DNA of 64,000 nucleotides, taken from NCBI GenBank assembly GCA_019352195.1, contig JACAFG010000003.1:956-64955 (forward strand). The letters are read 5' to 3'. Of the stretch, positions 3,966 through 57,732 are shown piece by piece. The notes below the pieces were generated by a model that searched no databases, was not told the DNA's origin, and worked only from the letters and a program-made list of their open reading frames with translations. The position numbers and the translations under genes are program-made. Within the stretch, counting starts at the first letter, position 1. Each line of letters begins with the position of its first letter. This stretch comes from Candidatus Saccharimonadota bacterium. GTDB taxonomy: Bacteria; Patescibacteriota; Saccharimonadia; UBA4664.

Positions 3966-4011
3966 AACTAGTATTTTAGCAGACAAAACCGAAGCCGTCG
4001 TGTGCAAACTA

Positions 4012-39696: not shown

Positions 39697-40316
39697 TCTT
39701 TGATCACGTCGAGAGCTTTTTCGGTGATGATGATCTTATCGGCGTTCATGACTTCAAAGACGTTGAGGTAGGTAGCGGATACCGTCTTGAGACCAGCAAC
39801 GTTACGGGTAGCACGATCGACGAGCGAGGTTTTAGCCTCAACGGCCATGAGAACGCTGCCGGAGATGTTCATCTTGCCAAACAATTCGATAGTTGGCTTA
39901 ACGCGGCCTTCAGCAGCCTCAAATGTTTCGAGGATGATAATGTCACCGGCTTCGGCTCGCAAACTAAGGGCCTGGCGAATAGCAGCACGCTTAGCCTTGA
40001 TGTTCATGGCAACCGTGTAGTTCTCGTTACCAGTTGGTCCAAAGACCACCCCGCCGCCGCGCCAGTTTGGCACGCGGATTGAACCAACACGAGCTCGGCC
40101 CGTGCCTTTTTGCTTCCAAGGCTTCTTACCGCCGCCAGCAACTTCGCCGCGCTTTAACGTCGAGGCTTTGGCTACACGCCCGTTTGATAAGTACATGTTG
40201 TAAGCCTGCTGCACGAGATCGTGGTTGGCCTCGGCACCAAAAATGCCCGCGTCCAGCTTAATAGCTGTGTCGTGCTTGGCGCCGGTCTTCGAGTAGGATG
40301 TAGCGGTAGTTGCCAT
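39675..40316 (-). CDS. rplD: 50S ribosomal protein L4
   Basis: ...KKPWKQKGTGRARVGSIRVPNWRGGGVVFGP... Confidence 0.9.
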   Translation of the reverse strand: MATTATSYSKTGAKHDTAIKLDAGIFGAEANHDLVQQAYNMYLSNGRVAKASTLKRGEVAGGGKKPWKQKGTGRARVGSIRVPNWRGGGVVFGPTGNENYTVAMNIKAKRAAIRQALSLRAEAGDIIILETFEAAEGRVKPTIELFGKMNISGSVLMAVEAKTSLVDRATRNVAGLKTVSATYLNVFEVMNADKIIITEKALDVIKEWLGATK

Positions 40317-40972
40317 TAGAAACCTTTCACCAAAATAGTTCCGCGCTTCGGACCAGGCACCGCGCCTGAGATGGCCAAAATGTTGCGCTCAGCATCAACT
40401 AAAACAATCTTGAGCCCGGTAACCGTTACTTGGTCGCTGCCCATCCGGCCGGCCATGCGGATACCTTTGTAGACGTGCTGAGGGAACATGGAACCAATTG
40501 AGCCGTGGCCGCGGTGAGCATGAGAACCGTGCGTCTTACGACCACTGTTAAAGTTGTGGCGCTTAATAACACCGGCAAAACCTTTGCCCTTTGACGTTCC
40601 CGTTACCTGGATCTTGTCGCCAGCTTCAAAGGCGGTAACGTCAATTTTAGCGCCTACTTCTAGTGCCAGGGCCTCATCGTAGGCTGCCTGACGCGTTTTC
40701 GCGTAGGGGTGCTTAGCGTCAACGGGAGCCACACGCACTTCGCGTAGCACACTGGAGTTAACGTTAGCAGCCTTCAGGTGGCCCGTCTGAGGCTTGGCCT
40801 GGTGCTTAGCATCGCCAAAACCAATCTGAATAGCGTTATAGCCATCGGTTTCGGTAGTTTTGACTTGAGTGACGGTGCAGGGACCAGCCTGAATCAACGT
40901 AACGCGAGCTACGTTGCCGTCCGCATCGAACAGCTGAGTCATACCGAGTTTGGTTCCGAGGAGTGCCTTCAT
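40316..40972 (-). CDS. rplC: 50S ribosomal protein L3
   Basis: MKALLGTKLGMTQLFDADGNVARVTLIQAGPCTVTQ... No rpsJ is found upstream. Confidence 0.9.
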   Translation of the reverse strand: MKALLGTKLGMTQLFDADGNVARVTLIQAGPCTVTQVKTTETDGYNAIQIGFGDAKHQAKPQTGHLKAANVNSSVLREVRVAPVDAKHPYAKTRQAAYDEALALEVGAKIDVTAFEAGDKIQVTGTSKGKGFAGVIKRHNFNSGRKTHGSHAHRGHGSIGSMFPQHVYKGIRMAGRMGSDQVTVTGLKIVLVDAERNILAISGAVPGPKRGTILVKGF

Positions 40973-41154
40973 GGTTTGCCTAAGGTTACATTACATAAAT
41001 AAGTCCTAGGCTACTGACGGTTTCTGCGAGGCAGACCTGCCGGTGTCCTAGTTGATTGCTGCGTGAACAGCTCTCAGATACCAAACGACTATAACGTATC
41101 TGATGGGTGCGTGTCAACAATATCAGCCTCATTTGTTTAGAGCCGCTCCTAATT

Positions 41155-41184
41155 GTTGACAATTGTTGCATAATGTGCTACTAT
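41155..41184 (+). promoter_or_regulatory. sigma-70-like promoter (TTGACA - 18 nt - TACTAT) upstream of the 41198 gene
   Basis: ttgacaattgttgcataatgtgctactat lies 14 nt before the ATG. Confidence 0.4.
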
Positions 41185-41197
41185 TGCACGCATTCTT

Positions 41198-41392
41198 ATG
41201 AAACTACGCTTACCATCACTCACCATCACGCTCGTCGGCATTCTATTTGTCGCCGATATCGTTGTTAGCTTTGTCTATGCTGCCCTCCCCACGACCCTTA
41301 CTGCCGTGCGCTCAGAACTCGATATGCTCCTGCTCATTATAATGAGTATCACGATGGTTGGGGCACTCGCGTGGCTGATCGATAGCTTCTAA
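41198..41392 (+). CDS. small 2-TM membrane protein (64 aa)
   Basis: A hydrophobic ORF between the promoter-like element and a strong terminator. Confidence 0.45.
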   Translation: MKLRLPSLTITLVGILFVADIVVSFVYAALPTTLTAVRSELDMLLLIIMSITMVGALAWLIDSF

Positions 41393-41404
41393 TAGCAACC
41401 AAAC

Positions 41405-41440
41405 CAAAAAACCGCTGCCACGTTGCAGCGGTTTTTTTGA
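41405..41440. terminator. bidirectional rho-independent terminator (accgctgc-cacgtt-gcagcggt, flanked by A6 and T7)
   Basis: Perfect 8-bp stem with an A-run 5' and a T-run 3'. It serves the convergent genes ending at 41392 (+) and 41453 (-). Confidence 0.65.
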
Positions 41441-41452
41441 TGCCAACAATCC

Positions 41453-41710
41453 CTATTGAATGGCGATATAGAGTCCAATTTGACCCGACAGACCCAAAAG
41501 CGCTGCGACAATGAGCACAGCGTACTCAATTTTACGATCGATCTTGAAGTGGTCGTGGGTGGTAAGCATGAGGCCAATAATGAGGCCAATCGGAAATATT
41601 ACCAATCCATTAAATTTAATCCAGATACTACCAAAGACGAAGTAAATCAGGATTTTTAGAAAATAGGTACCGTTGGTTTCGGTGGTCGCTGCGGCGCGCT
41701 TTTTACTCAT
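41453..41710 (-). CDS. small 2-TM membrane protein (85 aa)
   Basis: Hydrophobic ORF. Confidence 0.4.
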   Translation of the reverse strand: MSKKRAAATTETNGTYFLKILIYFVFGSIWIKFNGLVIFPIGLIIGLMLTTHDHFKIDRKIEYAVLIVAALLGLSGQIGLYIAIQ

Positions 41711-41803
41711 GGTGGTATTAAAGCATAACCGTGATGAAATTGCGAGTCATAAGTCGTTACAGCATTGCGGCGCAAGTTAAGGCTCGTGATAAGCTAAATT
41801 CAT

Positions 41804-42349
41804 ATGGTTTATCCGCTATTTGCCCTCATGTGCGTCCTCGTAATCTGGGCCGCTGGTTTTTTCTTAATCCGCCGCTGGCCGGGTGACCGTTCGATGAGCA
41901 TTAGCTTGCACGCGGTCGCACATCGCTCGGCGTTTTGGTATTTTGCCAGCGTGACGACGGTGATAGGTGTGGCGTTTACCGCGTTTCTCACGCAATGGTT
42001 TATTCCGACATTTCACTTGCCCTGGTGGTTTACGGCGGTCTATTTACTATCATTTGCGGCCCAGCTCATAACGGCCTGGGTGCCGGATCGGCCCGGCTGG
42101 CGGCGACCAGTTCACCGCTTGGCAGCCTACGGTATGGCCTTGTTATGGCTCGTATTAACGATCATGCTGGCGGCTTCCGCGGAGTTGAGTGTGTTCGCCC
42201 GGTGGTTTAGTGCCTTAGGCGCGATGGTGATGGTGGGTTCGTTAGTAGTCGCGATGCATCCTCGGCAACGGCCTAACTACCTGATTTATCAAACTACGTA
42301 CGTCATGGTGCTGGATGTGGTGTTTTTAGTGGCAACCTTCGCTCGCTAG
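41804..42349 (+). CDS. polytopic membrane protein (181 aa, about 5 TM, Trp-rich)
   Basis: Hydrophobic ORF with an ATG start. Confidence 0.45.
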   Translation: MVYPLFALMCVLVIWAAGFFLIRRWPGDRSMSISLHAVAHRSAFWYFASVTTVIGVAFTAFLTQWFIPTFHLPWWFTAVYLLSFAAQLITAWVPDRPGWRRPVHRLAAYGMALLWLVLTIMLAASAELSVFARWFSALGAMVMVGSLVVAMHPRQRPNYLIYQTTYVMVLDVVFLVATFAR

Positions 42350-42497
42350 AGCGTAGTCGGTCGTGCGCGTAGCTGCCAGGGCTTAGGTTGATCTTATAGA
42401 TTTATTGCGATATTGATGTTATAGTACTACGGTTTAGTCCCTACGTCCGATTGGAGTTACCGTGGTATATCCGGGTACACTCAGCCCTTCACAAGTC

Positions 42498-43310
42498 ATG
42501 ATGGTCGGAGATACGCACAGCCGCTTCGGCGACTGGTGAGACAAGATCATCCCCACCGCCCTAGCAAACAACCTCCAGGTACTAGTGGTGGCTGGCGACT
42601 TCGAAACCACCGACTACGGCGGCGACGATTTCCCAACCTACCGGGACTTCGTCCGGCTGTTGTCCAAGCAGCTCGCCAAACACGGCCTGACGGTCGTGTT
42701 CGTCGATGGGAATCACGACCGGCACAGCTTCTTGCGGGGTCTGATGGCCGAGCAAGGCGTCAAGAACTACGACAAGTTTGTCCGCGTGCGCGACAACATC
42801 TGGTACGCCCCGCGCGGGTTCACCTGGACGTGGTCAGGCAAGCAATTTATGGCCCTGGGCGGTGCCTACAGCGTCGCCGACGACCGTAACGGCCAGATCG
42901 CGCGCGGCGTTTATGAGTGGGACGAAGCCGTTTCGCCGGCCGACATGCGCCGAGCATACAGTCGGCTCGGCGGCCGGGGCACCATTGATGTTCTGGTTAC
43001 CCACGACTGCCCGATGGAGGTCCCACTGGCGGAGTTACACGAAGGCGTCCGGCCTTGGACTCGCGGCGACTCGCCCGAAACCGACGCCAACCGTCAGCTC
43101 GTCTCGCAGGTGTTCGTCGGTGGTGGCATCCCGTTGTGTTTTCATGGCCACTATCACTTGGCCTACGAATGCGCCGTGCGTGGTGGTTCAATCCGCGCCG
43201 AACAGCGGGTTGTCGGGCTCGGTGCCGATGCCGAAGCCGGTTCCATGCACTTGCTCGACTTGAGCCAGCACCCCGTCTCGACCTATGCGCTCGACATCGT
43301 GTCGGCGTGA
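42498..43310 (+). pseudogene. calcineurin-like metallophosphoesterase interrupted by an in-frame TGA
   Basis: ATG ATG GTC GGA GAT ACG CAC ... GGC GAC TGG TGA GAC AAG ... GTG GTG GCT GGC GAC TTC reads MMVGDTHSRFGDW*DKIIPTALANNLQVLVVAGDFE... Motif I (GDTH) lies upstream of the stop. Motifs II (GDFE), III (GNHD) and GHYH lie downstream, in the same frame. Confidence 0.65.
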
Positions 43311-43428
43311 TTTGTCCGCACAACCCAGATCTAGGGTGAAGCGCCAGTCGAACTTCGACGGGCGCTTTCCTTTGCCCAGAGCGACCGTATATCCGTGCGA
43401 TTATGGTTACGTGATTAGGTGTCTAGCA

Positions 43429-44640
43429 CTATTTGTCGGTGTCGGACGGATGGTAAAACGTATCGTTTTTGAGCGTTTCGGGCAAAAAGCCTTTCGGGTG
43501 TTCGAAACCGGCCTCCCATTTGGTGCCCTTGCCATATTCAAGCTCTTTCATGAGCTTAGTGGGGGCATTGCGCAGATGCAGCGGGACTTCAGCGGCAGGA
43601 TTTTGTTTAGCCGCCGTAATCGCCTCAGCGATGGCATCGTAGGCGCTCCGGCTTTTGGGAGCCTTGGCAAGTGCAATGGTGCATTGGCTTAGAATGATCC
43701 GACCTTCAGGCAGGCCAATGCGCTCGACGGCCAGGAACGTGTCGGTCGCGAGCATGAGCATGCGGTTATCCGCCACCCCGACGTCTTCGGAAGCCAGAAT
43801 CACCAGTCGGCGTGCAATAAATTTCGGATCTTCGCCGCCTTCGAGCATGCGCGCCAAATAAAATAGGGCGGCGTCCACAGCGCCCCCGCGAACACTTTTG
43901 ATAAAGGCCGAGATGACGTTGTAATGATATTCGCCGCCCTTATCAAATTTGGCGGCCGTAGTTTGCATGGCTTGTTTGATGTGTTCAGTGGTCATTCTCG
44001 CGCCACCTGCGAGGCTAGCTGCAGTTTCGAGACCGCCGAGCGCCACCCGCGCATCACCGGCAGCGAGTTGCGCCAGTAAATTGATTGCCTGTGGTTCGAT
44101 TTGGGCACCCAGCTCCGCCCGTCCGCGCTCCAAGATAGCCTCGAGCTGTTCGACGGTTAGCGCCTCAAGCACTACTACCCGACTTCGCGACAACAATGCG
44201 CCGATGACTTCAAACGAGGGATTTTCGGTCGTAGCGCCGATGAGGGTAATGGTGCCGTTTTCGACGTGCGGCAAAAACGCATCTTGCTGAGCTTTGTTAA
44301 AGCGATGGATTTCATCAACAAATAGCACCGTCCCCTGTCCCATTTTGCGGCGCTCTTGAGCGCGTTCAATGATTTTCTTCACGTCGGGGAGCCCGTTTGT
44401 GACGGCCGAGATTTCTTCAAATGCCGACCCTGAACTGGTGGCAATAATGCGCGCTATGGTAGTTTTTCCGGTCCCGGGTGGACCCCATAATATGAGTGAG
44501 GTGGGAGTATGCGTCTCAATAATGCTGCGTAAAAACTGGCCTTCACCAACGACGTTGGTTTGGCCGATAACCTCATCAATAGTCGTTGGGCGAATACGGT
44601 CTGCTAGCGGTCGTGGCTGATTGGAATCAAATAAATTCAT
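43429..44640 (-). CDS. rarA: replication-associated recombination protein A (AAA+ ATPase RarA/MgsA)
   Basis: RPTTIDEVIGQ..., Walker A GPPGTGKTT, Walker B VLFVDEIHRFNK, and the MgsA C-terminal domain. Confidence 0.85.
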   Translation of the reverse strand: MNLFDSNQPRPLADRIRPTTIDEVIGQTNVVGEGQFLRSIIETHTPTSLILWGPPGTGKTTIARIIATSSGSAFEEISAVTNGLPDVKKIIERAQERRKMGQGTVLFVDEIHRFNKAQQDAFLPHVENGTITLIGATTENPSFEVIGALLSRSRVVVLEALTVEQLEAILERGRAELGAQIEPQAINLLAQLAAGDARVALGGLETAASLAGGARMTTEHIKQAMQTTAAKFDKGGEYHYNVISAFIKSVRGGAVDAALFYLARMLEGGEDPKFIARRLVILASEDVGVADNRMLMLATDTFLAVERIGLPEGRIILSQCTIALAKAPKSRSAYDAIAEAITAAKQNPAAEVPLHLRNAPTKLMKELEYGKGTKWEAGFEHPKGFLPETLKNDTFYHPSDTDK

Positions 44641-44769
44641 AGCTTAATTCTATCATACCTGTTCGGCTTTCGTTCGCAAATTGGTAGGCTAGAGTTGGCG
44701 CATTGGGTTGATCGCGAGGCGTGCCCCATCCGCAGGTCTGTCGTCGCTCGGCGGCCACCGACACACGAT

Positions 44770-45660
44770 CTAGTTTTTAACGGCGTCGATGAGGAGCAGC
44801 TGGCGACGTTCGAGGCGAACTGTGAGCGGCAGTTTCATCCGTTCGACTTCGCCGTCTAGACCAACCAATAAGGACCCGTGGCGCCTAGAATCAACTACCA
44901 GCTCCGAAGGATTGAACTGGTGAAACATGTCCATACTGCGAGTCGTACCCAAAGTGGTGCGCTAGGCTAGTTTTACGAGGTCAGCGCGTTTGTCGGAGTT
45001 TAGCGTATAGACACATAACTCACCTTTATCGACGTTTTCTCGCGCCACCAAGCCGAGGCGATCAATTTGATAATCATTATTGCCAATAAATACGAGTGGC
45101 GAGGTCACCTTGGTAACCTCGCCGTTAATCGTCAAATTTAGGCTAAACGTCTGATAGTGAATGAGAACCTTAACGCTGGCAATGGCGGCCGCCAGCATTT
45201 TGCCAATATAGGGCTGTATTTTCTCACGTTCAGTCACAAAGCGAGGATAAAATCCGAGCCCAGCGTTGTTTAAAAAAATTGATCCATTCACTTCGCCAAC
45301 ATCGACGCGGCGAGTCTGGCCTGATTCCAGCGCCTTGAAGATAGCTTCTAAATCGTTTGGCACGCCCAGATCTCTGGCAAAATGGTTAAAAGTTCCCCAT
45401 GGCAAGACGCCGAAGGCCGTTTTTGTCCCGGCCAACGATGAGGCCACGGAGCGCAAGGTGCCGTCGCCCCCTGCTGCTACTACCGCTTTATAGCCCGCGT
45501 CGCGCAGACGAGCTGTTTGGGCCACGATATCAGAGCCGGTAAGCACTACTTCCGCGTCCAGTTTATGCTCTGTAATGGTGCTATGGAGGAGTTTAATTCT
45601 TGCCAAAGTTACCGAACCAGAGCCGGGATTGATGATAAAAACGTAGCGCGGATGGGCCAT
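44770..45660 (-). pseudogene. YegS/DagK-family lipid kinase interrupted by an in-frame TAG
   Basis: ORF 44962..45660 (FIINPGSGS..., AAGGDGT catalytic domain) ends at TAG 44962-44964. The same frame continues ...DKRADLVKLA*RTTLGTTRSMDMFHQ...VGLDGEVERMKLPLTVRLE (ORF 44770..44952). This is the conserved C-terminal beta-sandwich. Confidence 0.65.
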
Positions 45661-46193
45661 TAGACTTGCCCCACTTTAATAATGAGAACGAGCACAAGCA
45701 GGCCCAGACACCAACCTCCCAAGATGTCAGTCGGATAATGCGCGCCAAGGTACACGCGTGAGAGGCCTATCATAATAATGAGTAAGGTGAACAGTAGCGG
45801 GATAACACTGTTCCAGACTTGGGCTAAATGGCCAGCCGCCAAAAAGGCCAACAGCCCATACATGACCAGGGAACCATAGCTGTGACCGCTCGGAAAACTG
45901 TAGGTGTGGAGGCCAAGTGCGGCGGCCGTATCGGGTCGGGTACGCTGCCATATCACTTTGATCAGGGCCGAAAACAATAAAGATCCCAACGCAGCCAGCG
46001 CCACGAGAGCTATGTTGTAGTGATGCTGCCAGAGCGTCGATCCTAGCAGGGCAAGACCAACTAACGTTACCGTTGCGGGGCGCCCGATAAGACTGGCGCC
46101 CGTCATAGCTGAGTCAAGCGATGACGGCCAGGTGCGAATTTGACGCGTGACCGCCAGATCGAAACGGCTAATTTGTGTGGTAATCGATTTCAT
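45660..46193 (-). CDS. PAP2-family phosphatase (undecaprenyl-diphosphatase / PgpB-like)
   Basis: KxxxxxxRP (KVIWQRTRPD), PSGHS and SRVYLGAHYPTD motifs. 5-6 TM helices. Confidence 0.7.
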   Translation of the reverse strand: MKSITTQISRFDLAVTRQIRTWPSSLDSAMTGASLIGRPATVTLVGLALLGSTLWQHHYNIALVALAALGSLLFSALIKVIWQRTRPDTAAALGLHTYSFPSGHSYGSLVMYGLLAFLAAGHLAQVWNSVIPLLFTLLIIMIGLSRVYLGAHYPTDILGGWCLGLLVLVLIIKVGQV

Positions 46194-46319
46194 CGTTACA
46201 TTATAAACCGATTTTTAGGCATTTTGGTTGGCCTCAAATGCCGCTTTGATGAGACATAATTCCGGCCGGTCAGGCTAAATGATTCGCGGCCACCGGAACG
46301 AGTCCGGTGGCCGCGCAGA

Positions 46320-47275
46320 TCAATTGTTACAGCGAACGCCGCGCCAGCCTTGGTTGCCGAGCCAAATGTCGGCAGCGAGGCCAGCAACTCGGCCATCAGG
46401 TCCGTCGATCTCGTCCCAAACGTTGGAGTACCAACCGGTAACGTTGCGAAGGTAACCCTCGCCGAAAACGCTGTTACCTTGGAGCTGACATTCTACGGTT
46501 ATGGGTTCGCCTTCGAGTGGCCGCCACCCGGTAGCAATGGGCGGGCCAGCCCAATAGTCGCCCGTGCAGCTTGCCGCTGCGCAACACGCCAAACTACGCT
46601 GCCACGCCCATCAAGCCGATATAGCCGGTGTTGGCAATATGAGCGTAGTTTTGCACGGCAACGACCAATACGTAGATGGCCAATAGACCAATCGTTCCTA
46701 AATACCAGGGATGCATGGTGATCGCAAAAAAGCTGGTTTTGTCACTCGCAAACGTGCTGACCCGCGGGCTCATGAGGCGTGGCAAGACATATAGGCAGCC
46801 GAAAATTCCGAGGGCCGAGACGATAAACGCACCCCACAGCGGCAGATGCGTGAGTGAGGCAATTTGCCTGGTATCGCCACCGGTGACAAACGGGGTGATG
46901 AACATGTAGCCAAAGCCGGTTTCGGCGCTCAAGAAGGCCACCCAAATAGCTAGCAACACACTAAACCCAGTAGCTGACGTCTATAAGAGCCAGCTTTTGA
47001 GCCACCAAATGGCTAGCAAACCTGATACGAGACTTAAATAGTGGGCCCGTGGCTAAACTTATGATGTCGTGGGCGTGAGAGGTGGCGTCGGGCGTAACGA
47101 CAAAGTTGGGATAGATAGTTGCCTGGGTTGCTCCCAATATTAGAGCTGCGACGAGATGCGATATTTCATGCAGCGTTGTTACAATCAAACCGGCTAAGAC
47201 AAAGGCGATGGTTGAATTGAGGATCGTTCGTTTTTGGGCAGGAGCGGAGATTTTGGATCTGGCGTTTGAGTTCAT
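46320..47275 (-). pseudogene. membrane HExxH zinc-metalloprotease-like gene with Cys/Trp-rich C-terminal ectodomain, split into three contiguous ORFs in three frames
   Basis: ORF A 46961..47275 (TM helix containing LHEISHLVAA). ORF B 46594..46959 (3-4 TM). ORF C 46320..46592 (CCAAASCTGDYWAGPP...WLGNQGWRGVRCNN, TTG start, no signal peptide). The ends abut with no intergenic space. Confidence 0.45.
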
Positions 47276-47395
47276 ATTGCTTGGGTTATGCGATGCGGAT
47301 GAATTTGTCGGCTTGTCGTTTATACATCATCCGCCACTGGTAATTCTTCCAAAATGTTGGTATAATGCACAAAATTATAGACAACAAGGAATATC

Positions 47396-48661
47396 ATGGC
47401 CAACATATCGGACCAAGGCCGCATTAAAGAACTTGAGTCCGAAGTAGCCAAACTCACTACGCAAGTCGAAACGCTTAAATTAGCGACCGAAGCTGCGCCC
47501 AAGCGAACTCGCTGGGGCTGGCGGACAAATCTCAGTACGGCACTGCTGGCGTTAGCACTCATCGTAATTGTTCCGACCGGCATGGTGATTTGGCTTAACC
47601 GCACCGTCCTACAGCCGAGCGACTATATTAAGACGGTTGGTCCTGTTATTCAGGCTCCGGAAGTACAACTCGCTATCCAGAAGACCGCCACCGATCAACT
47701 GTTTGCGCATGTTGACGTAAATTCGCTCGTTAGCAATGCTTTGCCACCGCAAGCGCAGTTTTTGGCTGGCCCTATTTCATCTCAAGTAAAAACCTACACC
47801 AATACTACGATTGGTACGATTGTGGCGAGTCCGCAGTTTGCTAAGGTTTGGATTGCTGCTAACACGCAGGCCCAGGCTACGTTCGTGAATATTGCTAAAA
47901 ATTCCAATGGTAGCCCAGACATTGATATCAGCCGTGTCTACACCTTCATCTCTGCCCAGCTGCAAGACACGCCGCTATCCATAATCGCCAATCGACCATT
48001 GCCGGCTAATATCGGCAGCATTAACATCGCCACCGTGCCCGCGCTCCAAACTATCCCCCACTATGTGACACTGCTCAACACGTGGCGCTGGCTGCTCATC
48101 GGCCTCGTGGTCGTATTGCTGGCACTAGCAATTGGCGTGAGTAAGAAACGGCGTCGCACGACCGTCCAAACGGGTATTGGCATTATCTTTGCCGGTGTCG
48201 TTACGTTGGCCGTTATCCGGATCGGCCGGGCAGCCATGATTGATCCCATCAGCGATCCCATTTACCGTAACGCTGCCGTATCGGTTTGGCACACTATTCT
48301 CACGCCGTTCTTTTGGCAGCTAGGTGTAATGGCACTCCTCGGAGCAGTAATCGCGCTGGTTGGCTGGCTGGCCGGTCCTGGTAAAGTGGCCACGACGGTA
48401 CGTACCGGCAGCGAAAACTTGTTGGCTAGTGGCCGAGTTGCCCTGCTACCGACCCTCAGCGAGAATACAGCTGTCGTATGGATGCGTCGTCACCGCTTGG
48501 CACTTCGTTGGACGGTTCTCGTTCTTACCGTGGTAACCCTTGGTTTGTTCGTACCTTTAAGTGTCGTTAAGCTTATCGTCATATTAGTGATCGCACTGAT
48601 CGTCTTCCTTGGCTTAGAGTTTGTGATTGCTGATTCCAACCTGCCCAAAACAGCCGCTTAA
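47396..48661 (+). CDS. large polytopic membrane protein (421 aa; N-terminal coiled coil, TM, about 190-aa ectodomain, 5-6 C-terminal TM)
   Basis: ATG start. Family not recognised. Confidence 0.5.
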   Translation: MANISDQGRIKELESEVAKLTTQVETLKLATEAAPKRTRWGWRTNLSTALLALALIVIVPTGMVIWLNRTVLQPSDYIKTVGPVIQAPEVQLAIQKTATDQLFAHVDVNSLVSNALPPQAQFLAGPISSQVKTYTNTTIGTIVASPQFAKVWIAANTQAQATFVNIAKNSNGSPDIDISRVYTFISAQLQDTPLSIIANRPLPANIGSINIATVPALQTIPHYVTLLNTWRWLLIGLVVVLLALAIGVSKKRRRTTVQTGIGIIFAGVVTLAVIRIGRAAMIDPISDPIYRNAAVSVWHTILTPFFWQLGVMALLGAVIALVGWLAGPGKVATTVRTGSENLLASGRVALLPTLSENTAVVWMRRHRLALRWTVLVLTVVTLGLFVPLSVVKLIVILVIALIVFLGLEFVIADSNLPKTAA

Positions 48662-48727
48662 AGCGTGCTTGCCACAAAATAATCCCTCGCAGCAGCGATG
48701 CTACGGGGGATTATTTTGTGGGCGGAA

Positions 48728-49276
48728 CTACTTAGCGGCGATAGCCGGGTCACCAGCACCGAGGCCAACTGCGAGAACAATTGGGCCCGAAACCAGAGCG
48801 TAGATACCAATTACCCAAACGTAGGCAACGCCTGCGCCAACTGGGTAGCGGAGCAAGACCAGACCGACCAAGAGGGCCAAAACGCCCGAAACAATCGATA
48901 GGGCTTTGTGGTTGCTGTTGCTACCAATAGCGGCAACGACATCAAACACACCGCGGAAAATGAACGTGAAGCCGACGAACAAGACGAGCGTTACGGCCGT
49001 CGTGCCGGGGTGATCGAGGATGTACGAACCGGCTGCAATAAACAATGCACCGAGAACGATTTCGCCGATCGAGGACCAACCAGCGTTTAGGTGGACGATG
49101 CCGCTAACTACGCCAACGACACCGGCGATGAGCGCGTACAAGCCAAAGATGCTGGCAAAGGTTACGGCGGTCATACCTGGCCAAACGATAGCTACGAGAC
49201 CAAAGAGGATAAGCAAGATGCCTTCCACAATATATGGCCAGTGGCTGTGACTATGAACGGTGGATATTGAGTCCAT
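48728..49276 (-). CDS. HdeD-family (DUF308) acid-resistance membrane protein
   Basis: Repeated GxxxG-rich helices (ILLILFGLVAIVWPG...FVGFTFIFRGVFDVVAAIG...). The track ORF extends to 49441. I place the start at MDSISTVHSH. Confidence 0.55.
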   Translation of the reverse strand: MDSISTVHSHSHWPYIVEGILLILFGLVAIVWPGMTAVTFASIFGLYALIAGVVGVVSGIVHLNAGWSSIGEIVLGALFIAAGSYILDHPGTTAVTLVLFVGFTFIFRGVFDVVAAIGSNSNHKALSIVSGVLALLVGLVLLRYPVGAGVAYVWVIGIYALVSGPIVLAVGLGAGDPAIAAK

Positions 49277-49562
49277 GGAGCCTCCAAAATATTTTAAGGT
49301 GATCCGGCGTTTGCTCTTTTGCTGAGCCACAATACACACAACACCGGCTCGTGTATTGTGTAAGCTCATAATGTACTCCTTGGGACGATGTGTCAAGCAA
49401 CATAAGGATATTTTCAGCAACTTTGGATCGTAACTGGGCAATTTCTATTTATTTGTTACTAACGCGTGACAGCATAATTACTGGCAAACCTCGCGAGGCA
49501 CCATGTCGAACGGCCGACCCCGGGTTTGGGATCGGCCGTTATTCAGACGAGGTTGAATCGTG

Positions 49563-49823
49563 CTAGCGGAGCCGTCCCGAGATCTTCCAGGCTAGCCATA
49601 CGGCTACTCTGGAAGCCACCAGCGCTAAGATGATAATGATGATCACTAGCACTGGGGTTAAATACCGGTAGGTCCGCCAACTTACGAAGCAGGCAATGAC
49701 GGTGGCACCGATCGCGCGGGCGAGCGCCTGGTACAGGTTGTCACGCCGCGTGCGCTTATCTTTGGCCCACTTCAGACCGGCCGCTACCTGCAGCTCGTCA
49801 AAGACCACTGGGCGCTCAGTCAT
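49563..49823 (-). CDS. small membrane protein (86 aa)
   Basis: The first of three consecutive minus-strand membrane ORFs. It overlaps the next ORF by 8 nt. Confidence 0.35.
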   Translation of the reverse strand: MTERPVVFDELQVAAGLKWAKDKRTRRDNLYQALARAIGATVIACFVSWRTYRYLTPVLVIIIIILALVASRVAVWLAWKISGRLR

Positions 49824-50304
49824 CGGGCAGCCCCAATCGAACTGCTCGTCGACCTTCGGTGTCTTGCCGTTTTTGATGCCGGTAATCCAGTGCAGAGGCC
49901 AGCGTGAGCAAGCTAAAAGCCGGGTAGATCAGCCAGAACGGCCAACTGAAGTTGGACCCGATCAGTGCGGTAAGCACTGTCACCAGGAAGACTGGCACGG
50001 TAAAGCGGCCGCCGTTTGGCAAGATCTGGAATAGCCAGGTGAGAAAACCCATTCCGCAGCTTGCGACGAGCGTGTAACCGACAATGAGCAGGAGTGCTGA
50101 TCTGGTTGCAATCGGATCTCTACTGATTGTCGAGCCAATCAGACCAGCGAAACCTCCCAGAACCAGACCCGTCAGTAGAGCGTTTCGCAGTTCGGTGCGA
50201 TTTTGACGTTTGCGTTCGGCCGCCGCCGCTCGCATAGAGCTGTCGTACTGCACGTCCGGCGTATTCAGGCCGGTTCTGGCATGGTGATCGTAAAGTTCGG
50301 GCAT
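49816..50304 (-). CDS. membrane protein (162 aa, about 4 TM)
   Basis: Hydrophobic. Confidence 0.4.
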   Translation of the reverse strand: MPELYDHHARTGLNTPDVQYDSSMRAAAAERKRQNRTELRNALLTGLVLGGFAGLIGSTISRDPIATRSALLLIVGYTLVASCGMGFLTWLFQILPNGGRFTVPVFLVTVLTALIGSNFSWPFWLIYPAFSLLTLASALDYRHQKRQDTEGRRAVRLGLPDD

Positions 50305-50307
50305 CGG

Positions 50308-50709
50308 TTAGCCTCTCAGACTCGAAGTGAACTGGGAACGGACTTCGGCGTTGTGGCGCATGCCAGCTCGCCGATCGAGATAGCAACCCATCAGCACCAA
50401 AGCGATGATGGCGCTGTAGAGCCAGCTGGTAGCCGGCAACATCTGAATGATGAGGGCAAGGATCAAGCCGATGGCCAACGCCACTTGCAGTAGTAAACCG
50501 TCATTGTAGAGCTTGCGGCAGCCGAAGCCGACGATCTCAAACCCGAACGCAAAACCCACAGCAACCAGAGCTGCGGGCAGCCCGTAGGACGGATGGTGAT
50601 GGGTGGCGAAACCGGCGGTCCAAAACAACAGTCCGTAGAGCGCGCCCGTAACGACGTACGACAAGGCAAACAACACCGGGTTGGCAATTTTGGGGACATT
50701 ATGTGTCAT
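50308..50709 (-). CDS. membrane protein (133 aa, about 4 TM)
   Basis: Hydrophobic. Only 3 nt from the previous ORF. Confidence 0.4.
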   Translation of the reverse strand: MTHNVPKIANPVLFALSYVVTGALYGLLFWTAGFATHHHPSYGLPAALVAVGFAFGFEIVGFGCRKLYNDGLLLQVALAIGLILALIIQMLPATSWLYSAIIALVLMGCYLDRRAGMRHNAEVRSQFTSSLRG

Positions 50710-50950
50710 GTTCTATGCCATTCTTGAGGGCGGCAGGTAGCCGCAGCAGATGAAACAGCGTCAATCATACGATACTATATTTCAGTGTTTTGTCAATGAA
50801 TCGTGCCTTTTCTTTGCCGATGCCAAAACCACCACAAGCACTCACCTATCTGTTAAATATTGGGGTTAGTCACCTGATAAATTTGGTATATCTGGCGGTG
50901 ATGCCAACTACGACTCACGGTAAGATACGCCGGTAACCAAGGAGGTCCAC

Positions 50951-51187
50951 ATGGCAAATACGAAGACATCAGACGGTCGCGGTAATTTTGGCGATCCCGA
51001 AGAGCACGCGCGAGCGGGCAAAGCGGGTGGTGAGGCTACAGCCAAAAATCACGATAAGACTTTTTACGAAGAAATTGGCCGTGAAGGCGGCAATGCCTCG
51101 TCTGGCTCGTTTGAAAAAGGCGATCAGCGCGCCGTCGACGCTGGCCGCAAAGGTGGCAAAAACTCATCGGGTAATAGCAACTCCTAG
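50951..51187 (+). CDS. KGG-repeat general stress protein (YciG/GsiB-like)
   Basis: GRKGGKNSSGN and GREGGNASSG KGG-type repeats. Strong RBS AAGGAGG. Confidence 0.6.
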   Translation: MANTKTSDGRGNFGDPEEHARAGKAGGEATAKNHDKTFYEEIGREGGNASSGSFEKGDQRAVDAGRKGGKNSSGNSNS

Positions 51188-51260
51188 ATCCTGCCTGAAA
51201 TTCCACAGCCAAACGGTCGACTCCGCGAGAGTCGGCCGTTTGATTATGATCGCTGGCGCG

Positions 51261-51824
51261 CTAAACTGAGCGATCGTTGCCCAGCGTTGTATGGATGTCG
51301 CCTTCCGATACGCCTGGGTCGCGGCCACTTAGGCCCAAAATCTTAGCCGATACGTCGGCGTCATCTGAAACTGGTACGACGGGACCAACCGCATCGGAGT
51401 TGGCCAGTTGGTATGCCCGTGGCAGCATAAAGTCATAGGCAAACTGCACTACTTTGGGGTCCATCACTTGGCTGCGGCCAAGTGCGCCGTTGAGATCCCA
51501 TAAGTGCAGCAAACGGTCGCCCGTCTGCGCCGCTAGACTGGTCGCCATAGTCTCGTCGGCAGTTTCGGCTAGTTCTTCGGCGGCTTCGGCAATTTCAGTC
51601 CAGCGCTCGGCGGGCTCTTCGCCCAGCACGTCGGTACCTGGTTCCGCTGTCATGTGCGCGCCTTCGGTGAGGGACAAATTATTGAGCGCCACGTGGTTTA
51701 CGAGCTCGCGCACACTCCAATCAGGCGTGCTGGGGACCATCTCTTCCCATTGTTCATCATCAATCATATTTACCGCATCGGTAAAAGCCTGATCGGCTCG
51801 TAAAAACATTTCCGCTTCGCGCAT
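51261..51824 (-). CDS. DinB_2 / mycothiol-maleylpyruvate-isomerase N-terminal-domain (TIGR03086-like) protein
   Basis: WSVRELVNHVALNNL... LLHLWDLNGALG... The four-helix DinB-like N-domain is typical of actinobacterial TIGR03086 proteins. Assigned from memory of the family. Confidence 0.45.
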   Translation of the reverse strand: MREAEMFLRADQAFTDAVNMIDDEQWEEMVPSTPDWSVRELVNHVALNNLSLTEGAHMTAEPGTDVLGEEPAERWTEIAEAAEELAETADETMATSLAAQTGDRLLHLWDLNGALGRSQVMDPKVVQFAYDFMLPRAYQLANSDAVGPVVPVSDDADVSAKILGLSGRDPGVSEGDIHTTLGNDRSV

Positions 51825-52505
51825 AACAGTCCTTTGGTTAGGCCTTAATCGTAGCTTTCTAGGCGCTTACTAGCTTTGTGAAGAGTTACAAGTTTTGAAC
51901 TCACTGGTCGCTTGGATATGCGTCTCTAGCTCTTATTTCCTGAGCGGGTTATCATTCGCTGATGAGGACTTGGAACAAACTTGGTTTGGGATCGTCTGGC
52001 GATTCTGGCACCGAGCCCAGCGACAGCGCCGCGCCGGCCGAAGATATGAGCCGGTCGCACGAAGTGATTCACGATTCTAGCGGCGACGCCTACTGGGAAC
52101 AATTTGAGTCGGCCATTGAGCATCTAAGCGCCAAAGAATTAAACGACCTCAATTACCGCTTGGGAGCCGGCGTGGCTGACTTTTCAAACTGGCACGACTA
52201 TGTCGACGTGTTTTGTAAGTACGAGTGGTATCAGTTTTGCGAGGCTTATCATTGGGCGACTGGGACGAGTTTTAGTTTGGAAAGCTGACGGATTTATCTT
52301 CCGGCCATATTTTATCAAACATTAGCCACGAGCCTATTTATGGCCCTTGGTCTGACTCGGTAAAAACGGTCGAGGCGCACTCGCCACTGATATTTGTGAC
52401 CCGCTTTCTGGTCGAGCTAGATGGCGACAACAGCCCAACTAACCATAGCTGTCAGGCTAAGTTGACGTAAAAAGCCATATGAAGCCTTACATGGACCGCG
52501 ATTTC

Positions 52506-52531
52506 AAAAACCCCGCTCTCGCGGGGTTTTT
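52506..52531 (-). terminator. rho-independent terminator after rpsJ (ccccgctctcgcgggg + U-run)
   Basis: Perfect 6-bp GC stem flanked by A5 and T5. Confidence 0.6.
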
Positions 52532-52537
52532 GGTCGA

Positions 52538-52873
52538 CTACATCTTAATTTCGATGTCCACACCTGCGGGCAGGTTGAGGTTCATCAGGGCATCGATGGT
52601 CTTGGGGGTGGGCTCGGTGATGTCGATGAGGCGCTTGTGAGTGCGCATCTCAAACTGTTCACGAGCGGTTTTGTAGACGTGTGGGCTACGCAATACCGTG
52701 GTGACGGTGCGGTCGGTGGGCAGCGGGATGGGGCCTGCAACAACGGCGCCGGTACGGATAGCGGTGTCGATGATTTGCTTGGCGCTTTGGTCGATTACTT
52801 TCGAATCGTAAGCCTTAAGACGGATACGAATGCGTTGCTTCTCGGGGGTTGCGGGGGTGGTGGCTGCGGCCAT
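52538..52873 (-). CDS. rpsJ: 30S ribosomal protein S10 (orphan, with 12-aa N-terminal extension)
   Basis: [73 protein letters not shown]... Confidence 0.9.
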
Positions 52874-53060
52874 GTGATGGAAACTCCTGGTGCTCTACCG
52901 TAATCTCTTCGCGGAGTGAAAAGGCGTACTGCCTGTGACCGGACGAGTTCTCGGTAGGTGATTTAGTATTACTGAGCGATATTATAACCGTGAAAAACCG
53001 GCTTTACAAGGCTAAGGGCCCCGCACTCGATAGAATGCAGGGCCCTGGGGGCCAGTTGGG

Positions 53061-53804
53061 TTAGGATGAAACGCGGTTGTCGGCCAGTACTTGGCCCATC
53101 ATATTGGGTGGCAGCAACGCGCAGATTTGCCAGCTGGTGGCCGTACCATCAAACTGGGACTCTACCGACAGCGCGTCGCCAAACAGGTGCTGCCAGCCGG
53201 ATTTGAGCTCGGCCTTGGCCGTTACCAGCGCCCGCAATCGGCCACTGGTGAGCTGGCGTAGGTTGGGCGATTCGCCGACGAACTCAATCCATACGCTCAG
53301 CTCGTCGTTGCCGTTGCAGATGGTGGTGTCTCGAACATAATGTTGTCGCCCCGGCCAAGCGTCATCGGCCTTCACCTTGGCACGGCCGACATTGGCCAGA
53401 AAATGCGACGCCAGCTCGGGATCGAGACCCAGCCCGGCAAACAGGTCGGTGACATCGGCGTCGTCTACCGCGATGGTGTCGTTGTAGCGTTTTACCTCGG
53501 CCGCCAGAGCCGCAAACATACCGCTGTGGAGTTGGCGATGTTCCCAATACCGCGCCATCATGTCCAAGTAATCCTGGGAGATGTCAGGTAATAGCACCGG
53601 TATTACTTTGTAGCCGGGGTAGCTGGAGGCGAGTGCTCGAAGACACCATTCGATACTATCCGCCAATGGTGGAGACCAATACGCGCCTGGTACATGTGGC
53701 AGAAGCCGAGGTGGCCAAACTCCAACGAGAAGGCCATTTGTAATTACCGGCCTAAAACGAATACTGCCTACCCGATGTGTCCGTAGTTCCCTTCGTACAG
53801 ACAT
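53061..53804 (-). CDS. hypothetical protein (247 aa), high-GC cargo
   Basis: No motif recognised. The start is uncertain; an internal ATG at MMARYWEHRQ would give 165 aa. Confidence 0.35.
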   Translation of the reverse strand: MSVRRELRTHRVGSIRFRPVITNGLLVGVWPPRLLPHVPGAYWSPPLADSIEWCLRALASSYPGYKVIPVLLPDISQDYLDMMARYWEHRQLHSGMFAALAAEVKRYNDTIAVDDADVTDLFAGLGLDPELASHFLANVGRAKVKADDAWPGRQHYVRDTTICNGNDELSVWIEFVGESPNLRQLTSGRLRALVTAKAELKSGWQHLFGDALSVESQFDGTATSWQICALLPPNMMGQVLADNRVSS

Positions 53805-53812
53805 GACCCACC

Positions 53813-54268
53813 ATGAAGTTTCTCGTATCAGATGTCGACACCGCCCGGCACGTGCTGGCGCTCGACCGACATCAGTCGCGCCACCCAGAGCTGTCGGCCG
53901 ATTTGGAGGCTGAATTCAAAGAGATGCGCCGGAAGTCGTCCGACAAGTACCTGCCCAAACGTCTGACCTATCTGGTGGACAGAGCCATCCAAAAGGCGGT
54001 CTTCAGCTACCGCCACGGACGCGACGCCAGTTTCGACATCGTGCTGGGCCGTTCCGACCGCAGTTACATCCGCGAGGTCGGTTGGGCCACCGACGAGCTC
54101 CACGTTCTGCTCGACCGCGATAGGCTCACGCTGAGGTTCGACTGGGACCTGGACGGCCTGCTCCGCGCTATCCGGGTGCAGCTGTTGCTTCCGACCGACG
54201 TACCCACCAATCTGACGGAGACCGTACTGGCCAGCCTATCGGCCAACGACGGCGGCGGCGACAGCTGA
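53813..54268 (+). CDS. hypothetical protein (151 aa), divergent from the previous gene
   Basis: ATG start. Only 8 bp separate the two divergent starts. Confidence 0.35.
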   Translation: MKFLVSDVDTARHVLALDRHQSRHPELSADLEAEFKEMRRKSSDKYLPKRLTYLVDRAIQKAVFSYRHGRDASFDIVLGRSDRSYIREVGWATDELHVLLDRDRLTLRFDWDLDGLLRAIRVQLLLPTDVPTNLTETVLASLSANDGGGDS

Positions 54269-54469
54269 ATCGCTACCCGGCGGAACCACCTTGTAAGAGG
54301 CTGGTTCCGCCGGGGATTTTGTCTTTTAGCATAAGTTCTAAAAAACTATTGACTCTAGACCTCGAAAGTTGTATTTTTTGATAGGTTTATACGCCTGAAG
54401 TTTGATGGCGGAACCACGCAGTACCTGCTGAGGCAATCCTTTGCAGACGTCCTAGAATAAGGACTGTAC

Positions 54470-55000
54470 ATGACCACCCTGGTAGCACCTGCCGGACGTA
54501 TGGCCAGCCTCACATCCGATAACAACGTTGTCATGTCGCACCGCCAAACGGCCGCCGCTCGGGCCGCCGCGCAGCAAGCTGCTCACCTCGAGCGTATCCG
54601 TGAGCATCTCCCCGAGATGATCACCCATGCGATCGAGCTCGCGCTTCAGCATGGTGACAGGCTGAACGCTGCCTGCGCCAAGCAGAAGCGTTCGGTCCCC
54701 ACCGCGCGCTGGCTGGCCTACAGTATCAATTTCGGCATGTTCCGCCAACTCACCCATCTCACGCTGTGTGAGGCCAAGACTGCCGAGCTCACCAAGATGG
54801 CGGCGGACATCGTCGTGGCCAGGGAGAAGGCCGACAAGGCGGCCAAGGTGGCCGACGACTCGGCCGTCGCCACCACCCCCGACAGGCTCACCGTGACCGT
54901 GTCGCGCACCGGCCTGTCGCTCACCGTCAGGTTCAGCCAGAAGTACCCGTCCAAGACCAACCAGGTCGCCACCAAGACCACAACCAAGACCTCCGCCTGA
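54470..55000 (+). CDS. hypothetical protein (176 aa; Ala/Lys-rich helical, Thr/Lys C-terminal tail)
   Basis: Preferred over the overlapping Gly-rich minus-strand ORF 54452..55213. Confidence 0.35.
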   Translation: MTTLVAPAGRMASLTSDNNVVMSHRQTAAARAAAQQAAHLERIREHLPEMITHAIELALQHGDRLNAACAKQKRSVPTARWLAYSINFGMFRQLTHLTLCEAKTAELTKMAADIVVAREKADKAAKVADDSAVATTPDRLTVTVSRTGLSLTVRFSQKYPSKTNQVATKTTTKTSA

Positions 55001-55127
55001 CCCATCCCATCTACCCTGATGGAGCCGCCTCAACCGAGATGGCTCCATCAGGAGTTTTGCTTTTATGGGGCTAAATAGCTTAAGGGCCCGCATCCGAGGT
55101 GGATGCGGGCCCTTTGAGGCAATGGGG

Positions 55128-55559
55128 TTATTCGCCCCAAGTAATGATGGCACACCACCCGGTTTCGAGGTTGGGGCCGTAGAACTTGATCCGGGCAACG
55201 GACACGTCGCCAAAGATGGCCTGCCACGTGTCGATATTTTCTTGACGAACCACTTCGCTCACGTATGTCACGTGATGTCCGAACGGCCGCGTGATCGTAA
55301 GTGCGGCATCTGCGCCGTGTTCCGGCAAGGCCGGAAATGGACAGGACATGAGGGAGGTGAGACGGCGCTGCTGAGCGCCAAATTCGACGGTGAGGCGCAC
55401 GGCCAAGGTGCATTCGTCTGCGGGGACGTAGCCTTCGGCGGGTTTGTGGCCGTTCATGCGCCACAAGATCTCGTCGATATCGGCGGTCACACCGTGGTAC
55501 GAAACCACATCGATGGTGCCAGTTGCCGGCGAGGCAACGACGGTTGATGTAGGGGTCAT
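55128..55559 (-). CDS. hypothetical acidic protein (143 aa)
   Basis: Overlaps the upstream gene by 4 nt (ATGA), which suggests a coupled pair. Confidence 0.4.
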   Translation of the reverse strand: MTPTSTVVASPATGTIDVVSYHGVTADIDEILWRMNGHKPAEGYVPADECTLAVRLTVEFGAQQRRLTSLMSCPFPALPEHGADAALTITRPFGHHVTYVSEVVRQENIDTWQAIFGDVSVARIKFYGPNLETGWCAIITWGE

Positions 55560-56035
55560 TTGGAGCCTTCCAGAGACGTAGGGGCATTGAGTCCGGTCGA
55601 CGGGTCGTCAGCCAGTGGCGGAAACAGTACAAACGTCTGCAGTTCGAGCTTGTCGGGGTCGTGCCCCACTTCAATGCGGTCGCAATCGCCAAACAGGCGG
55701 TTCCATCCAAAGATGTTGTGGCAGGTGCGGAGCCTTTCGATGAGCTCGGCGTCGTCGTCGATCTCGAGTTCGCCCGTGGCAATGGTGAGACTGGCCAAAA
55801 CAATCTGGCTGTCGGCGGCCAGGCGATATGGGGCCGAGAGCAAACCGGTGATCTTTTCACCGTCTACTTCGATGTCGACGGCCAACCAGTGCGACAAGTC
55901 GTCGGGGTCAAACGGGCGGGCTTCGCCCACACCGGCCAATACGTCGATGATGCACGTGACTTCTCGTTGCTGGGTTGGAATGCAGGCCCGGATGGCGAGT
56001 CGGCGGCGCTGTTGTTTAATAGTTGCTTCAGTCAT
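55556..56035 (-). CDS. hypothetical acidic protein (159 aa)
   Basis: The first gene of a two-gene unit downstream of the tuf terminator. Confidence 0.4.
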   Translation of the reverse strand: MTEATIKQQRRRLAIRACIPTQQREVTCIIDVLAGVGEARPFDPDDLSHWLAVDIEVDGEKITGLLSAPYRLAADSQIVLASLTIATGELEIDDDAELIERLRTCHNIFGWNRLFGDCDRIEVGHDPDKLELQTFVLFPPLADDPSTGLNAPTSLEGSK

Positions 56036-57443: not shown

Positions 57444-57691
57444 TTTAAAACTCCTTTAATTGTTCCAATCCAGATGGCTGATCGCAAACTGCGATGTGGC
57501 CTTCGAGCTGGCGGGCCAGCAATCTGCCTTGGAACGAACAGTTAATCTATAAGTTGCTCAAGCATAAAAAGATGCCCGAAAAGGACCCTCGTATTATACG
57601 GAAAACGACCGTGCTTTGTAAAGGGTTTGGGGCTTTAAAACGAAGAAGCCGCCGACAAAATGTCAGCGGCTGGTGAAATGATGGTCCGGGC

Positions 57692-57732
57692 GGCCCATCG
57701 AGTGTCCGGGGGGGGTAGACTCTCGATGGGCC
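57692..57732. repeat. 15-bp-stem hairpin (ggcccatcgagtgtc / gactctcgatgggcc, loop cggggggggta) in the fusA-tuf spacer
   Basis: Read directly; one mismatch in the stem. Confidence 0.5.

Follow-up and report, generated by a model that had tools for sequence, protein, structure and literature searches.

An open rpsJ–rplC junction across Saccharibacteria-like genomes, with a conserved structured leader upstream of rplC

The ribosomal protein genes rpsJ and rplC, coding for uS10 and uL3, are separated by an 11.5-kb block of other genes in the window analysed here, that is, in the whole 64,000-nucleotide (nt) stretch (positions 956 to 64,955) of contig JACAFG010000003.1 from a Candidatus Saccharimonadota bacterium (assembly GCA_019352195.1). 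An original prediction had taken this block for an accessory insertion that broke the S10 operon. The features that frame the junction are listed below in window coordinates (ORF, open reading frame; aa, amino acids; MFE, minimum free energy).

40316–40972, minus strand: rplC (uL3), Pfam Ribosomal_L3, at the head of the contiguous rplC…secY ribosomal cluster
40994–41059, minus strand: structured rplC 5′ leader, matched by covariance model R3 (E = 6e-5); the MFE fold has the same helices
41088–41117, minus strand: sigma-70-like promoter of the rplC operon, TTGACA-18-TATAGT, an 11/12 consensus match
41406–41437, no strand assigned: strong bidirectional terminator hairpin, 16-nt arms flanked by an A-run and a T-run, between mem85 and a convergent 64-aa ORF
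41453–41710, minus strand: mem85, a membrane protein of about 85 aa, no Pfam domain
43429–44640, minus strand: rarA/mgsA, intact (Pfam MgsA_C, E = 7e-54)
52506–52531, minus strand: terminator-like hairpin and T-run of rpsJ, CCCCGC-GAGA-GCGGGG-TTTTT, found by reading the sequence
52538–52873, minus strand: rpsJ (uS10), Pfam Ribosomal_S10 (E = 6e-37), single copy
53009–52981, minus strand: promoter-like site of rpsJ, TTGTAA-17-TATAAT, from a consensus scan, within the upstream region 52874–53009

Downstream of rplC, an unbroken minus-strand cluster of abutting or overlapping ORFs runs through rplD, rplW and rplB to secY (31146–32459), and the S10-operon order rplC-rplD-rplW-rplB-rpsS-rplV-rpsC-rplP-rpmC-rpsQ, followed by the spc genes, is as contiguous as in the canonical operon. 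Pfam labels give the same order for the rplC-led cluster of the relatives, and the L3 protein is 71%–90% identical to that of the relatives L162–L167. The only S10 gene of the window (a single tblastn match) lies 11,565 bp from rplC, instead of the tens to few hundred bp of the canonical arrangement. The original prediction was thus correct in stating that rplC has no rpsJ upstream of it, that rpsJ stands isolated, and that it has its own terminator: the gene appears to be monocistronic, with a promoter-like site in front of it and a hairpin with a T-run that begins 7 nt past the stop codon. The −35 and −10 elements of rpsJ, together with a 5′ untranslated region (UTR) of about 100 nt, are kept in four relatives (L162–L164 and L166). 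For this 5′UTR (52874–52975, minus strand), the prediction is a long, irregular hairpin of 16 pairs, with little covariation among only five sequences. Wang et al. used the rpsJ promoter of TM7x in Saccharibacteria, where it served as a strong promoter in its own right (PMC10633639). Judging from the sequence, the window does not carry the canonical layout in which a single promoter and leader upstream of rpsJ serve the whole operon.

The loci used for comparison were obtained by a genome-collection scan with S10 and a metagenome scan with an L3 alignment. In the S10 scan, the rpsJ–rplC gaps of 77 non-Saccharibacteria loci were 16–278 bp long, and those of the three closest loci, all Saccharibacteria-like, measured 1.8 kb, 4.0 kb, and more than 2.2 kb. 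The gap ranges from 326 to 11,681 bp (median 1.8 kb) in 20 Saccharibacteria-like loci, as against 9–8,024 bp in 128 other bacterial loci (three outliers); as the median of the latter is 45 bp and their 95th percentile 225 bp, the gap in the window is far outside chance variation. The shortest gaps of the lineage (326–605 bp in L082, L093, and L084) hold little beyond the rplC promoter and leader, which indicates that the constant lineage feature is the operon boundary between rpsJ and rplC. Gaps of 773–923 bp (L087, L089, and L092) add mem85 alone. In three loci (L001, L081, and L098), rpsJ directly follows tuf, at a distance of 13–59 bp.

RarA was chosen as a handle for relatives because it lies inside the block, and the contigs of six graded homologues (90%, 87%, 81%, 77%, 75%, and 73% identity) were compared with the window. 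RarA is located 1.4–3.0 kb upstream of rplC in all six, with mem85 between the two genes. Five of them show the order rpsJ … RarA … mem85–rplC, with rpsJ–rplC gaps of 11,498, 11,681, 9,135, 7,204, and 6,053 bp; in the sixth, RarA, mem85, and rplC are present and rpsJ lies beyond the 10-kb flank, more than 13.8 kb from rplC. A DinB-like gene and/or a 108-aa ORF recur beside rpsJ in the relatives. The best 120 RarA homologues among the matches listed are all at least 69% identical and carry, where names are given, only those of Saccharibacteria or Saccharimonadia, which marks RarA as a native gene. The block of the relative with 90% RarA identity differs from that of the window in both order and content: a DUF1697 gene is found only there, the KGG and 108-aa genes are relocated, and the HExxH gene and three small membrane ORFs occur, of the two, in the window only. 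Since such differences separate even these two genomes, the rpsJ–rplC interval evidently turns over. The original prediction had proposed a synteny comparison and had named the same arrangement in relatives, as a lineage trait, as grounds against a recent insertion. The relatives do share the layout as a lineage trait, and a recent acquisition of the block as an accessory element is not borne out.

The mem85 family comprises about 100 protein-database clusters, all annotated as "hypothetical" and devoid of a Pfam domain, and the source names given are those of Saccharibacteria only. The matches of its hidden Markov model, in 17 loci and in the window, all share the orientation of rpsJ and rplC. 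The gene lies between S10 and L3 in each of the 11 loci with both genes in view and upstream of L3 in 6 further loci; it was found nowhere else in the sampled loci. A predicted terminator after mem85 sets the gene apart from the rplC unit.

Both hexamers of the rplC promoter are invariant in seven genomes, and a site of the sigma-70-like kind is found ahead of each Saccharibacteria-like rplC. A palindrome, CAGATAC-N14-GTATCTG (41075–41102, minus strand), straddles the −10 box and is kept in L162–L164; a DNA-binding regulator might use it as its operator. The structured leader sits between the −10 box (41093–41088) and the ATG of rplC (40972) and is present in 26 Saccharibacteria-like loci; no such locus among those examined was without it. 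Its outer helix reads CUUGGUG/CACCAAG in most loci and CUAGG/CCUAG in the clade of the window; the inner parts are a short middle helix, an invariant A-GGUC...GA-AA-CC core that closes a hairpin of variable sequence and length, and a U-rich tract. When folded one by one (MFE), most of the leader sequences show this architecture. In the anchor-based alignment A8 (26 sequences), 85.7% of the cells are paired, compared with 72% in shuffled and 29%–44% in slid alignments, and 14 of the 18 pairs show compensatory changes, with a covariation score of 0.404 vs 0.16 that was reached by none of 500 shuffles. This alignment replaced a run of MAFFT and RNAalifold on the raw leader sequences, in which the conserved motifs did not line up and, as a result, no structure emerged.

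Further members turn up with covariance models trained on subsets of the leaders, exclusively upstream of rplC and in Saccharibacteria-like loci, and the full model, run on 2.38 Mb that include 74 non-Saccharibacteria str-S10 regions and E. coli rrnB, recovers its 26 members without any other match. Models R1 and R2, derived from one subclade, miss the window's own leader at default filters; R3, which includes that leader, recovers it. No match to the leader was obtained in Rfam 15 (4,227 families), even at E ≤ 1–5, and in the literature collection searched no paper connected ribosomal leaders with Saccharibacteria. A loose likeness of the leader core to segments of 23S ribosomal RNA (rRNA) was unsupported by the model search, which covered the E. 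coli rrnB operon and gave a terminator hairpin as the best R2 match (E = 0.85); no claim is made on this point.

Two further loci touch on the extent of the trait. L003 (DATIJU010000023.1), labelled "Bacillota bacterium", has S10, L3, mem85, and an rplC leader of the Saccharibacteria type, and its bin is probably mislabelled. L060, from Berkelbacteria, another lineage of Patescibacteria, shows a 278-bp rpsJ–rplC gap (5147–5423) with a promoter-like TTGAC...TACATT, and the Saccharibacteria leader model gives no match in it. Going by this locus, the operon boundary may be older than Saccharibacteria.

The conserved gene order, promoter, and leader point to a common arrangement. In Saccharibacteria, the boundary between transcription units, as placed by the predicted start and stop sites, would lie between rpsJ and rplC and not upstream of rpsJ. 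The rplC-to-secY cluster would be driven by its own sigma-70-type promoter, followed by a structured leader of about 100 nt, and rpsJ would be expressed separately, beside tuf in some members of the lineage and from its own promoter to its own terminator in the clade of the window. The interval between them would be a permissive inter-operon spacer, and for that reason genes could accumulate there harmlessly. In much of the lineage mem85 occupies the boundary, with the rarA block as a later occupant; in the clade of the window, rarA, the DinB/MDMPI_N gene, and the 108-aa ORF make up a stable backbone, around which other membrane and stress genes were presumably gained, lost, shuffled, and pseudogenised. 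Given a permissive junction with a stable backbone and turnover around it, the 11.5-kb block would be inherited, slowly turning-over filler. We assign a probability of roughly 80% to this reading, namely that the lineage inherited the open rpsJ–rplC junction long ago, as an operon boundary with gene-accreting filler, and that the layout reflects neither a recent island nor a misassembly.

Several points weigh against it. The lineage is sampled as the returns of two pattern scans, among which the cultured oral Saccharibacteria do not figure, and the taxonomy of the metagenome loci follows from similarity to named Saccharibacteria and not from a tree. Promoters and terminators alike were assigned by their fit to a consensus, i.e., from evidence of sequence only, and the rpsJ hairpin is missing from the list produced by the consensus terminator scan. 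L082, a Saccharibacteria-like locus, has only a divergent version of the leader. The alignment A8 was anchored by hand on conserved motifs with the structure in mind, so that its pair counts lean towards the structure, and the covariance models match their own training sequences by construction. Finally, the three single-base lesions placed below may be consensus errors of a metagenome-assembled genome (MAG).

The rplC leader is probably a ribosomal protein (r-protein) autoregulatory element or an attenuator. In E. coli, the S10 leader is the site of L4-mediated attenuation and of translational control, and by analogy with it we infer that the Saccharibacteria leader is an autoregulatory r-protein binding site or an attenuator. 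Both are structured 5′ leaders in front of the uL3/uL4/uL23/uL2 operon, with a hairpin and then a U-rich tract; unlike its E. coli counterpart, the Saccharibacteria leader precedes rplC instead of rpsJ. The E. coli element is the nearest functional analogue, and no relationship in sequence or structure was seen between the two. One study describes the E. coli S10 leader as restricted to Gammaproteobacteria (PMC3616713). With the r-protein leaders catalogued in Rfam, the element shares a lineage-restricted covarying 5′UTR structure of an r-protein operon, but it matches no catalogued family. In a more specific form, which we put forward tentatively and at somewhat less than even odds, the leader would be a new Saccharibacteria-specific autoregulatory element (e.g., a uL4- or uL3-responsive attenuator) that took over the control point which E. 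coli has ahead of rpsJ. In that case, expression of uS10/NusE would be uncoupled from the other members of the S10 regulon in this epibiont lineage with its reduced genomes, and an ancient move of the boundary would have opened the most conserved gene junction of Bacteria to accretion. The lack of likeness to any Rfam leader or of a match to the E. coli rRNA operon, and the U-rich run after the leader helix, would suit an element that senses no r-protein and only stabilises the 5′ end as a hairpin, marks a processing site, or belongs to an ordinary pause or terminator close to the promoter, and we regard this as a serious minority possibility. However, invariant unpaired or bulged nucleotides (A-GGUC...GA-AA-CC) inside covarying helices are typical of a specific ligand or protein site and not of a generic hairpin, and a place before the operon encoding uL3, uL4, and further r-proteins fits known autoregulatory leaders.

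Besides mem85 and rarA, the block holds the following genes.

41804–42349, plus strand: 181-aa membrane protein, no family; weak homologue in L163
42462–43310, plus strand: metallophosphoesterase with an in-frame TGA (Pfam Metallophos; full-length single-frame tblastn match to the 284-aa L162 orthologue)
44770–45660, minus strand: YegS/DAGK-type lipid kinase with an in-frame TAG (Pfam DAGK_cat)
45660–46193, minus strand: PAP2 phosphatase, intact (Pfam PAP2; orthologue alignment)
46329–46535, minus strand: gene remnant (tblastn match to the C-terminal ~72 aa of a 211-aa gene intact in L162)
46594–47275, minus strand: HExxH membrane protein, broken (257–265-aa homologues align in two frames)
47396–48661, plus strand: 421-aa multi-pass membrane protein, no family; 56% identical orthologue in L162
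48728–49369, minus strand: DUF308/HdeD-like membrane protein, 213 aa (Pfam DUF308, E = 2e-21; HdeD match weak)
49563–50709, minus strand: three small membrane-protein ORFs (133, 162, and 86 aa), no family; absent from L162
50951–51187, plus strand: KGG-repeat stress protein (Pfam KGG); orthologues in L162 and L163
51261–51824, minus strand: DinB/MDMPI_N (TIGR03086-like) protein, conserved backbone of the block; orthologues in L162–L164 and L166
51962–52288, plus strand: 108-aa ORF, conserved in the block of L162–L164, L166, and L167

The family scans reproduce the gene list of the original prediction (membrane proteins, Metallophos, RarA, DAGK, PAP2, HdeD-like, KGG, and TIGR03086-like genes), and the interruptions it had noticed could be placed exactly. 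The metallophosphoesterase, whose true start is at 42462, has TGA (42537–42539) where the orthologue has Arg. The lipid kinase can be read in one frame over 295 residues, with TAG (44962–44964) in place of a Trp of the orthologue; intact orthologues are 296–297 aa long. The HExxH gene has a 1-nt insertion near 47034 (an extra A after "GPLF") and also misses the C-terminal ~48 aa of its homologues. The DinB/MDMPI_N protein scores 61 bits against TIGR03086, which is under the family cutoff. The "Actinobacteria-flavoured" cast that the original prediction saw in many block genes traces solely to such below-cutoff matches to mycothiol-type DinB families. Scans with PADLOC and PHROGs of ten family-less ORFs from the block and from the insert between tuf and rpsJ found nothing.

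The persistence of rarA, the DinB-like gene, the 108-aa ORF, and mem85 at the junction over large evolutionary distances, together with the restriction of mem85 to this site in the sampled loci, might suggest that the block is not neutral filler but a membrane, stress, and DNA-repair module functionally coupled to the ribosomal genes through co-regulation or high expression. Such coupling seems unlikely to us, as the genes are of mixed orientation and fall into units isolated by predicted terminators and separate promoters, content and order shift between close relatives, pseudogenes are tolerated, and in other Saccharibacteria the gap is occupied by genes that have no relation to these (for an Idi-like Nudix protein or a 487-aa protein, for example).

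A recently acquired accessory island, for instance from an actinobacterial host, that split an intact S10 operon in this genome is very improbable and already largely refuted. It would be in keeping with the presence of families common in Actinobacteria (MDMPI_N, and mycothiol-type DinB TIGR03086/TIGR03083 under their cutoffs), with the disruption of several block genes, and with an insertion sequence (IS) element nearby, upstream of fusA. On the other side stand a block backbone retained in relatives down to 73% RarA identity, the native RarA, and an rpsJ–rplC gap that is open across the whole lineage sampled. The composition check proposed in the original prediction gave no signal, the block being indistinguishable from the rest of the window: its guanine-cytosine (GC) content is 0.534 and its tetranucleotide r against the rest is 0.90, a value that at least equals that of every one of sixteen 4-kb window segments (0.59–0.89). 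No integrase, transposase, or recombinase was found in the scanned block ORFs with Pfam, NCBIfam, PHROGs, or PADLOC; the block contains no transfer RNA (tRNA) gene, those of the window lying at 13–18 kb; direct repeats flanking it are only short and at chance level; and no empty site was seen in close relatives, six of which carry the block backbone. With neither a recombinase, nor repeats or a tRNA, nor deviating composition, nor an empty site, the block does not qualify as a genomic island or an integrated mobile element.

An assembly or binning chimera of the MAG, which the original prediction had allowed for and to which a short-read-type MAG contig and single-base defects in three genes (possibly consensus problems) might point, can be dismissed for practical purposes, because the same order recurs in independent contigs from other samples and assemblers (1.09-Mb ENA, 173-kb ENA, 840-kb JGI, 527-kb NCBI, and 829-kb ENA/NCBI), a second contig carries the same proteins for this very sequence, and composition is uniform over both junctions.

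The str-S10 linkage had been called universally conserved, which proved overstated. In Archaea, uS10 is always apart from uL3-uL4-uL23 and follows EF-1a in the str/L30e cluster …S12-S7-(fusA)-EF1a-S10 (PMC10833476). The Saccharibacteria layout is similar in that uS10 is detached from the uL3-led cluster and, in L001, L081, and L098, rpsJ comes right after tuf. It differs in belonging to a bacterial lineage and in that rpsJ and rplC of the window are still same-strand neighbours across variable filler; moreover, the window lacks the archaeal-type adjacency, with rpsJ 3.4 kb from tuf and five ORFs in between. Multigene insertions at the str/S10 junction have been documented in Gammaproteobacteria and Bacilli (PMC8046335), and two papers describe ordinary genes that were inserted there long ago, after which synteny relaxed, with no evidence of distant horizontal gene transfer (PMC8046335; PMC6735719). 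The present case resembles these in its old, vertically inherited ordinary genes at an operon junction, its relaxed synteny, and the absence of any sign of long-distance transfer. Whereas those insertions fall between tuf and rpsJ, the main one here separates rpsJ from rplC, two genes that share the S10 operon in E. coli and B. subtilis, and it is lineage-wide, with a dedicated promoter and leader before rplC.

What is new here is a lineage-wide relocated operon boundary with an uncatalogued covarying rplC leader; the gene-order finding alone is modest. The rpsJ–rplC pair is among the tightest bacterial gene pairs (median 45 bp in the comparison set), and a lineage in which this junction is open up to more than 13 kb offers a natural example of how a moved operon boundary turns a frozen junction into a place of gene accretion and decay. 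Synteny-based annotation, binning, or quality control should not flag this layout in Saccharibacteria as a misassembly, and the rpsJ–rplC interval may serve as a phylogenetic marker within the group. For the genetic systems that now exist for Saccharibacteria, the conserved promoter and leader of rplC, like the separate promoter of rpsJ, could supply expression and regulatory parts, and the leader is a candidate r-protein regulatory RNA in a phylum with almost nothing known on gene regulation.

The remainder of the str-S10 region of the window is also loosened. Its features are as follows.

53061–56035, no strand assigned: tuf–rpsJ insert, five ORFs with no family match, GC-richer
56259–57443, minus strand: tuf (gene call)
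58779–60860, minus strand: fusA (gene call)
61468–62250, minus strand: IS transposase (Pfam DDE_Tnp_1), upstream of fusA in the usual place of rpsG, outside the block

The spacing is 3,385 bp between tuf and rpsJ and 1,335 bp between fusA and tuf, and rpsL, rpsG, and rpoC are all missing from the window. The original prediction had the linkage broken at three points, and the tuf–rpsJ, fusA–tuf, and rpsJ–rplC junctions are indeed all open; the count is actually four, given the lack of rpsL and rpsG and the IS element upstream of fusA. The S7–fusA and tuf–rpsJ spacings are often enlarged in Saccharibacteria-like loci as well. The tuf–rpsJ insert has a GC content of 0.579, and two of its ORFs reach 0.80–0.83 at third codon positions. 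Its five ORFs have no Pfam, PADLOC, or PHROGs match and the insert is missing from the closest relative, L162; it may, for these reasons, be younger than the main block. Searches of the fusA–tuf spacer and the tuf–rpsJ insert against all loci with tblastx and blastn returned low-complexity noise and short conserved stretches beside tuf and rpsJ.

The fusA–tuf spacer (57444–58778) contains a perfect 12/12 sigma-70-like site (58504–58476, minus strand) and a terminator-like hairpin (57671–57647, minus strand), and the approximately 830 nt between the two hold no convincing ORF or Rfam match; on the spacer, Rfam at permissive thresholds yielded microRNA-like hairpin noise alone. Apart from about 160 nt adjoining tuf, the spacer is not conserved in relatives. 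In L002 and L003 a threonine-dehydratase-like gene fills this spacer, and no remnant of it was found in the window. Upstream of fusA, there are also an HTH_17 ORF (62466–62888, plus strand) and a C-terminal Mur-ligase fragment (63568–63996, minus strand). In L167, tuf looks split (2949–4131), with a 345-aa call and a separately aligning C-terminal part, and may be frameshifted. Far from the junctions, the window has a segment (11000–12111) with a GC content of 0.40, vs about 0.53 elsewhere, within the 4-kb segment of lowest tetranucleotide r (8001–12000, r = 0.59); it carries a SAM (S-adenosylmethionine)-methyltransferase-like ORF (11491–12111, minus strand) and is possibly foreign DNA.

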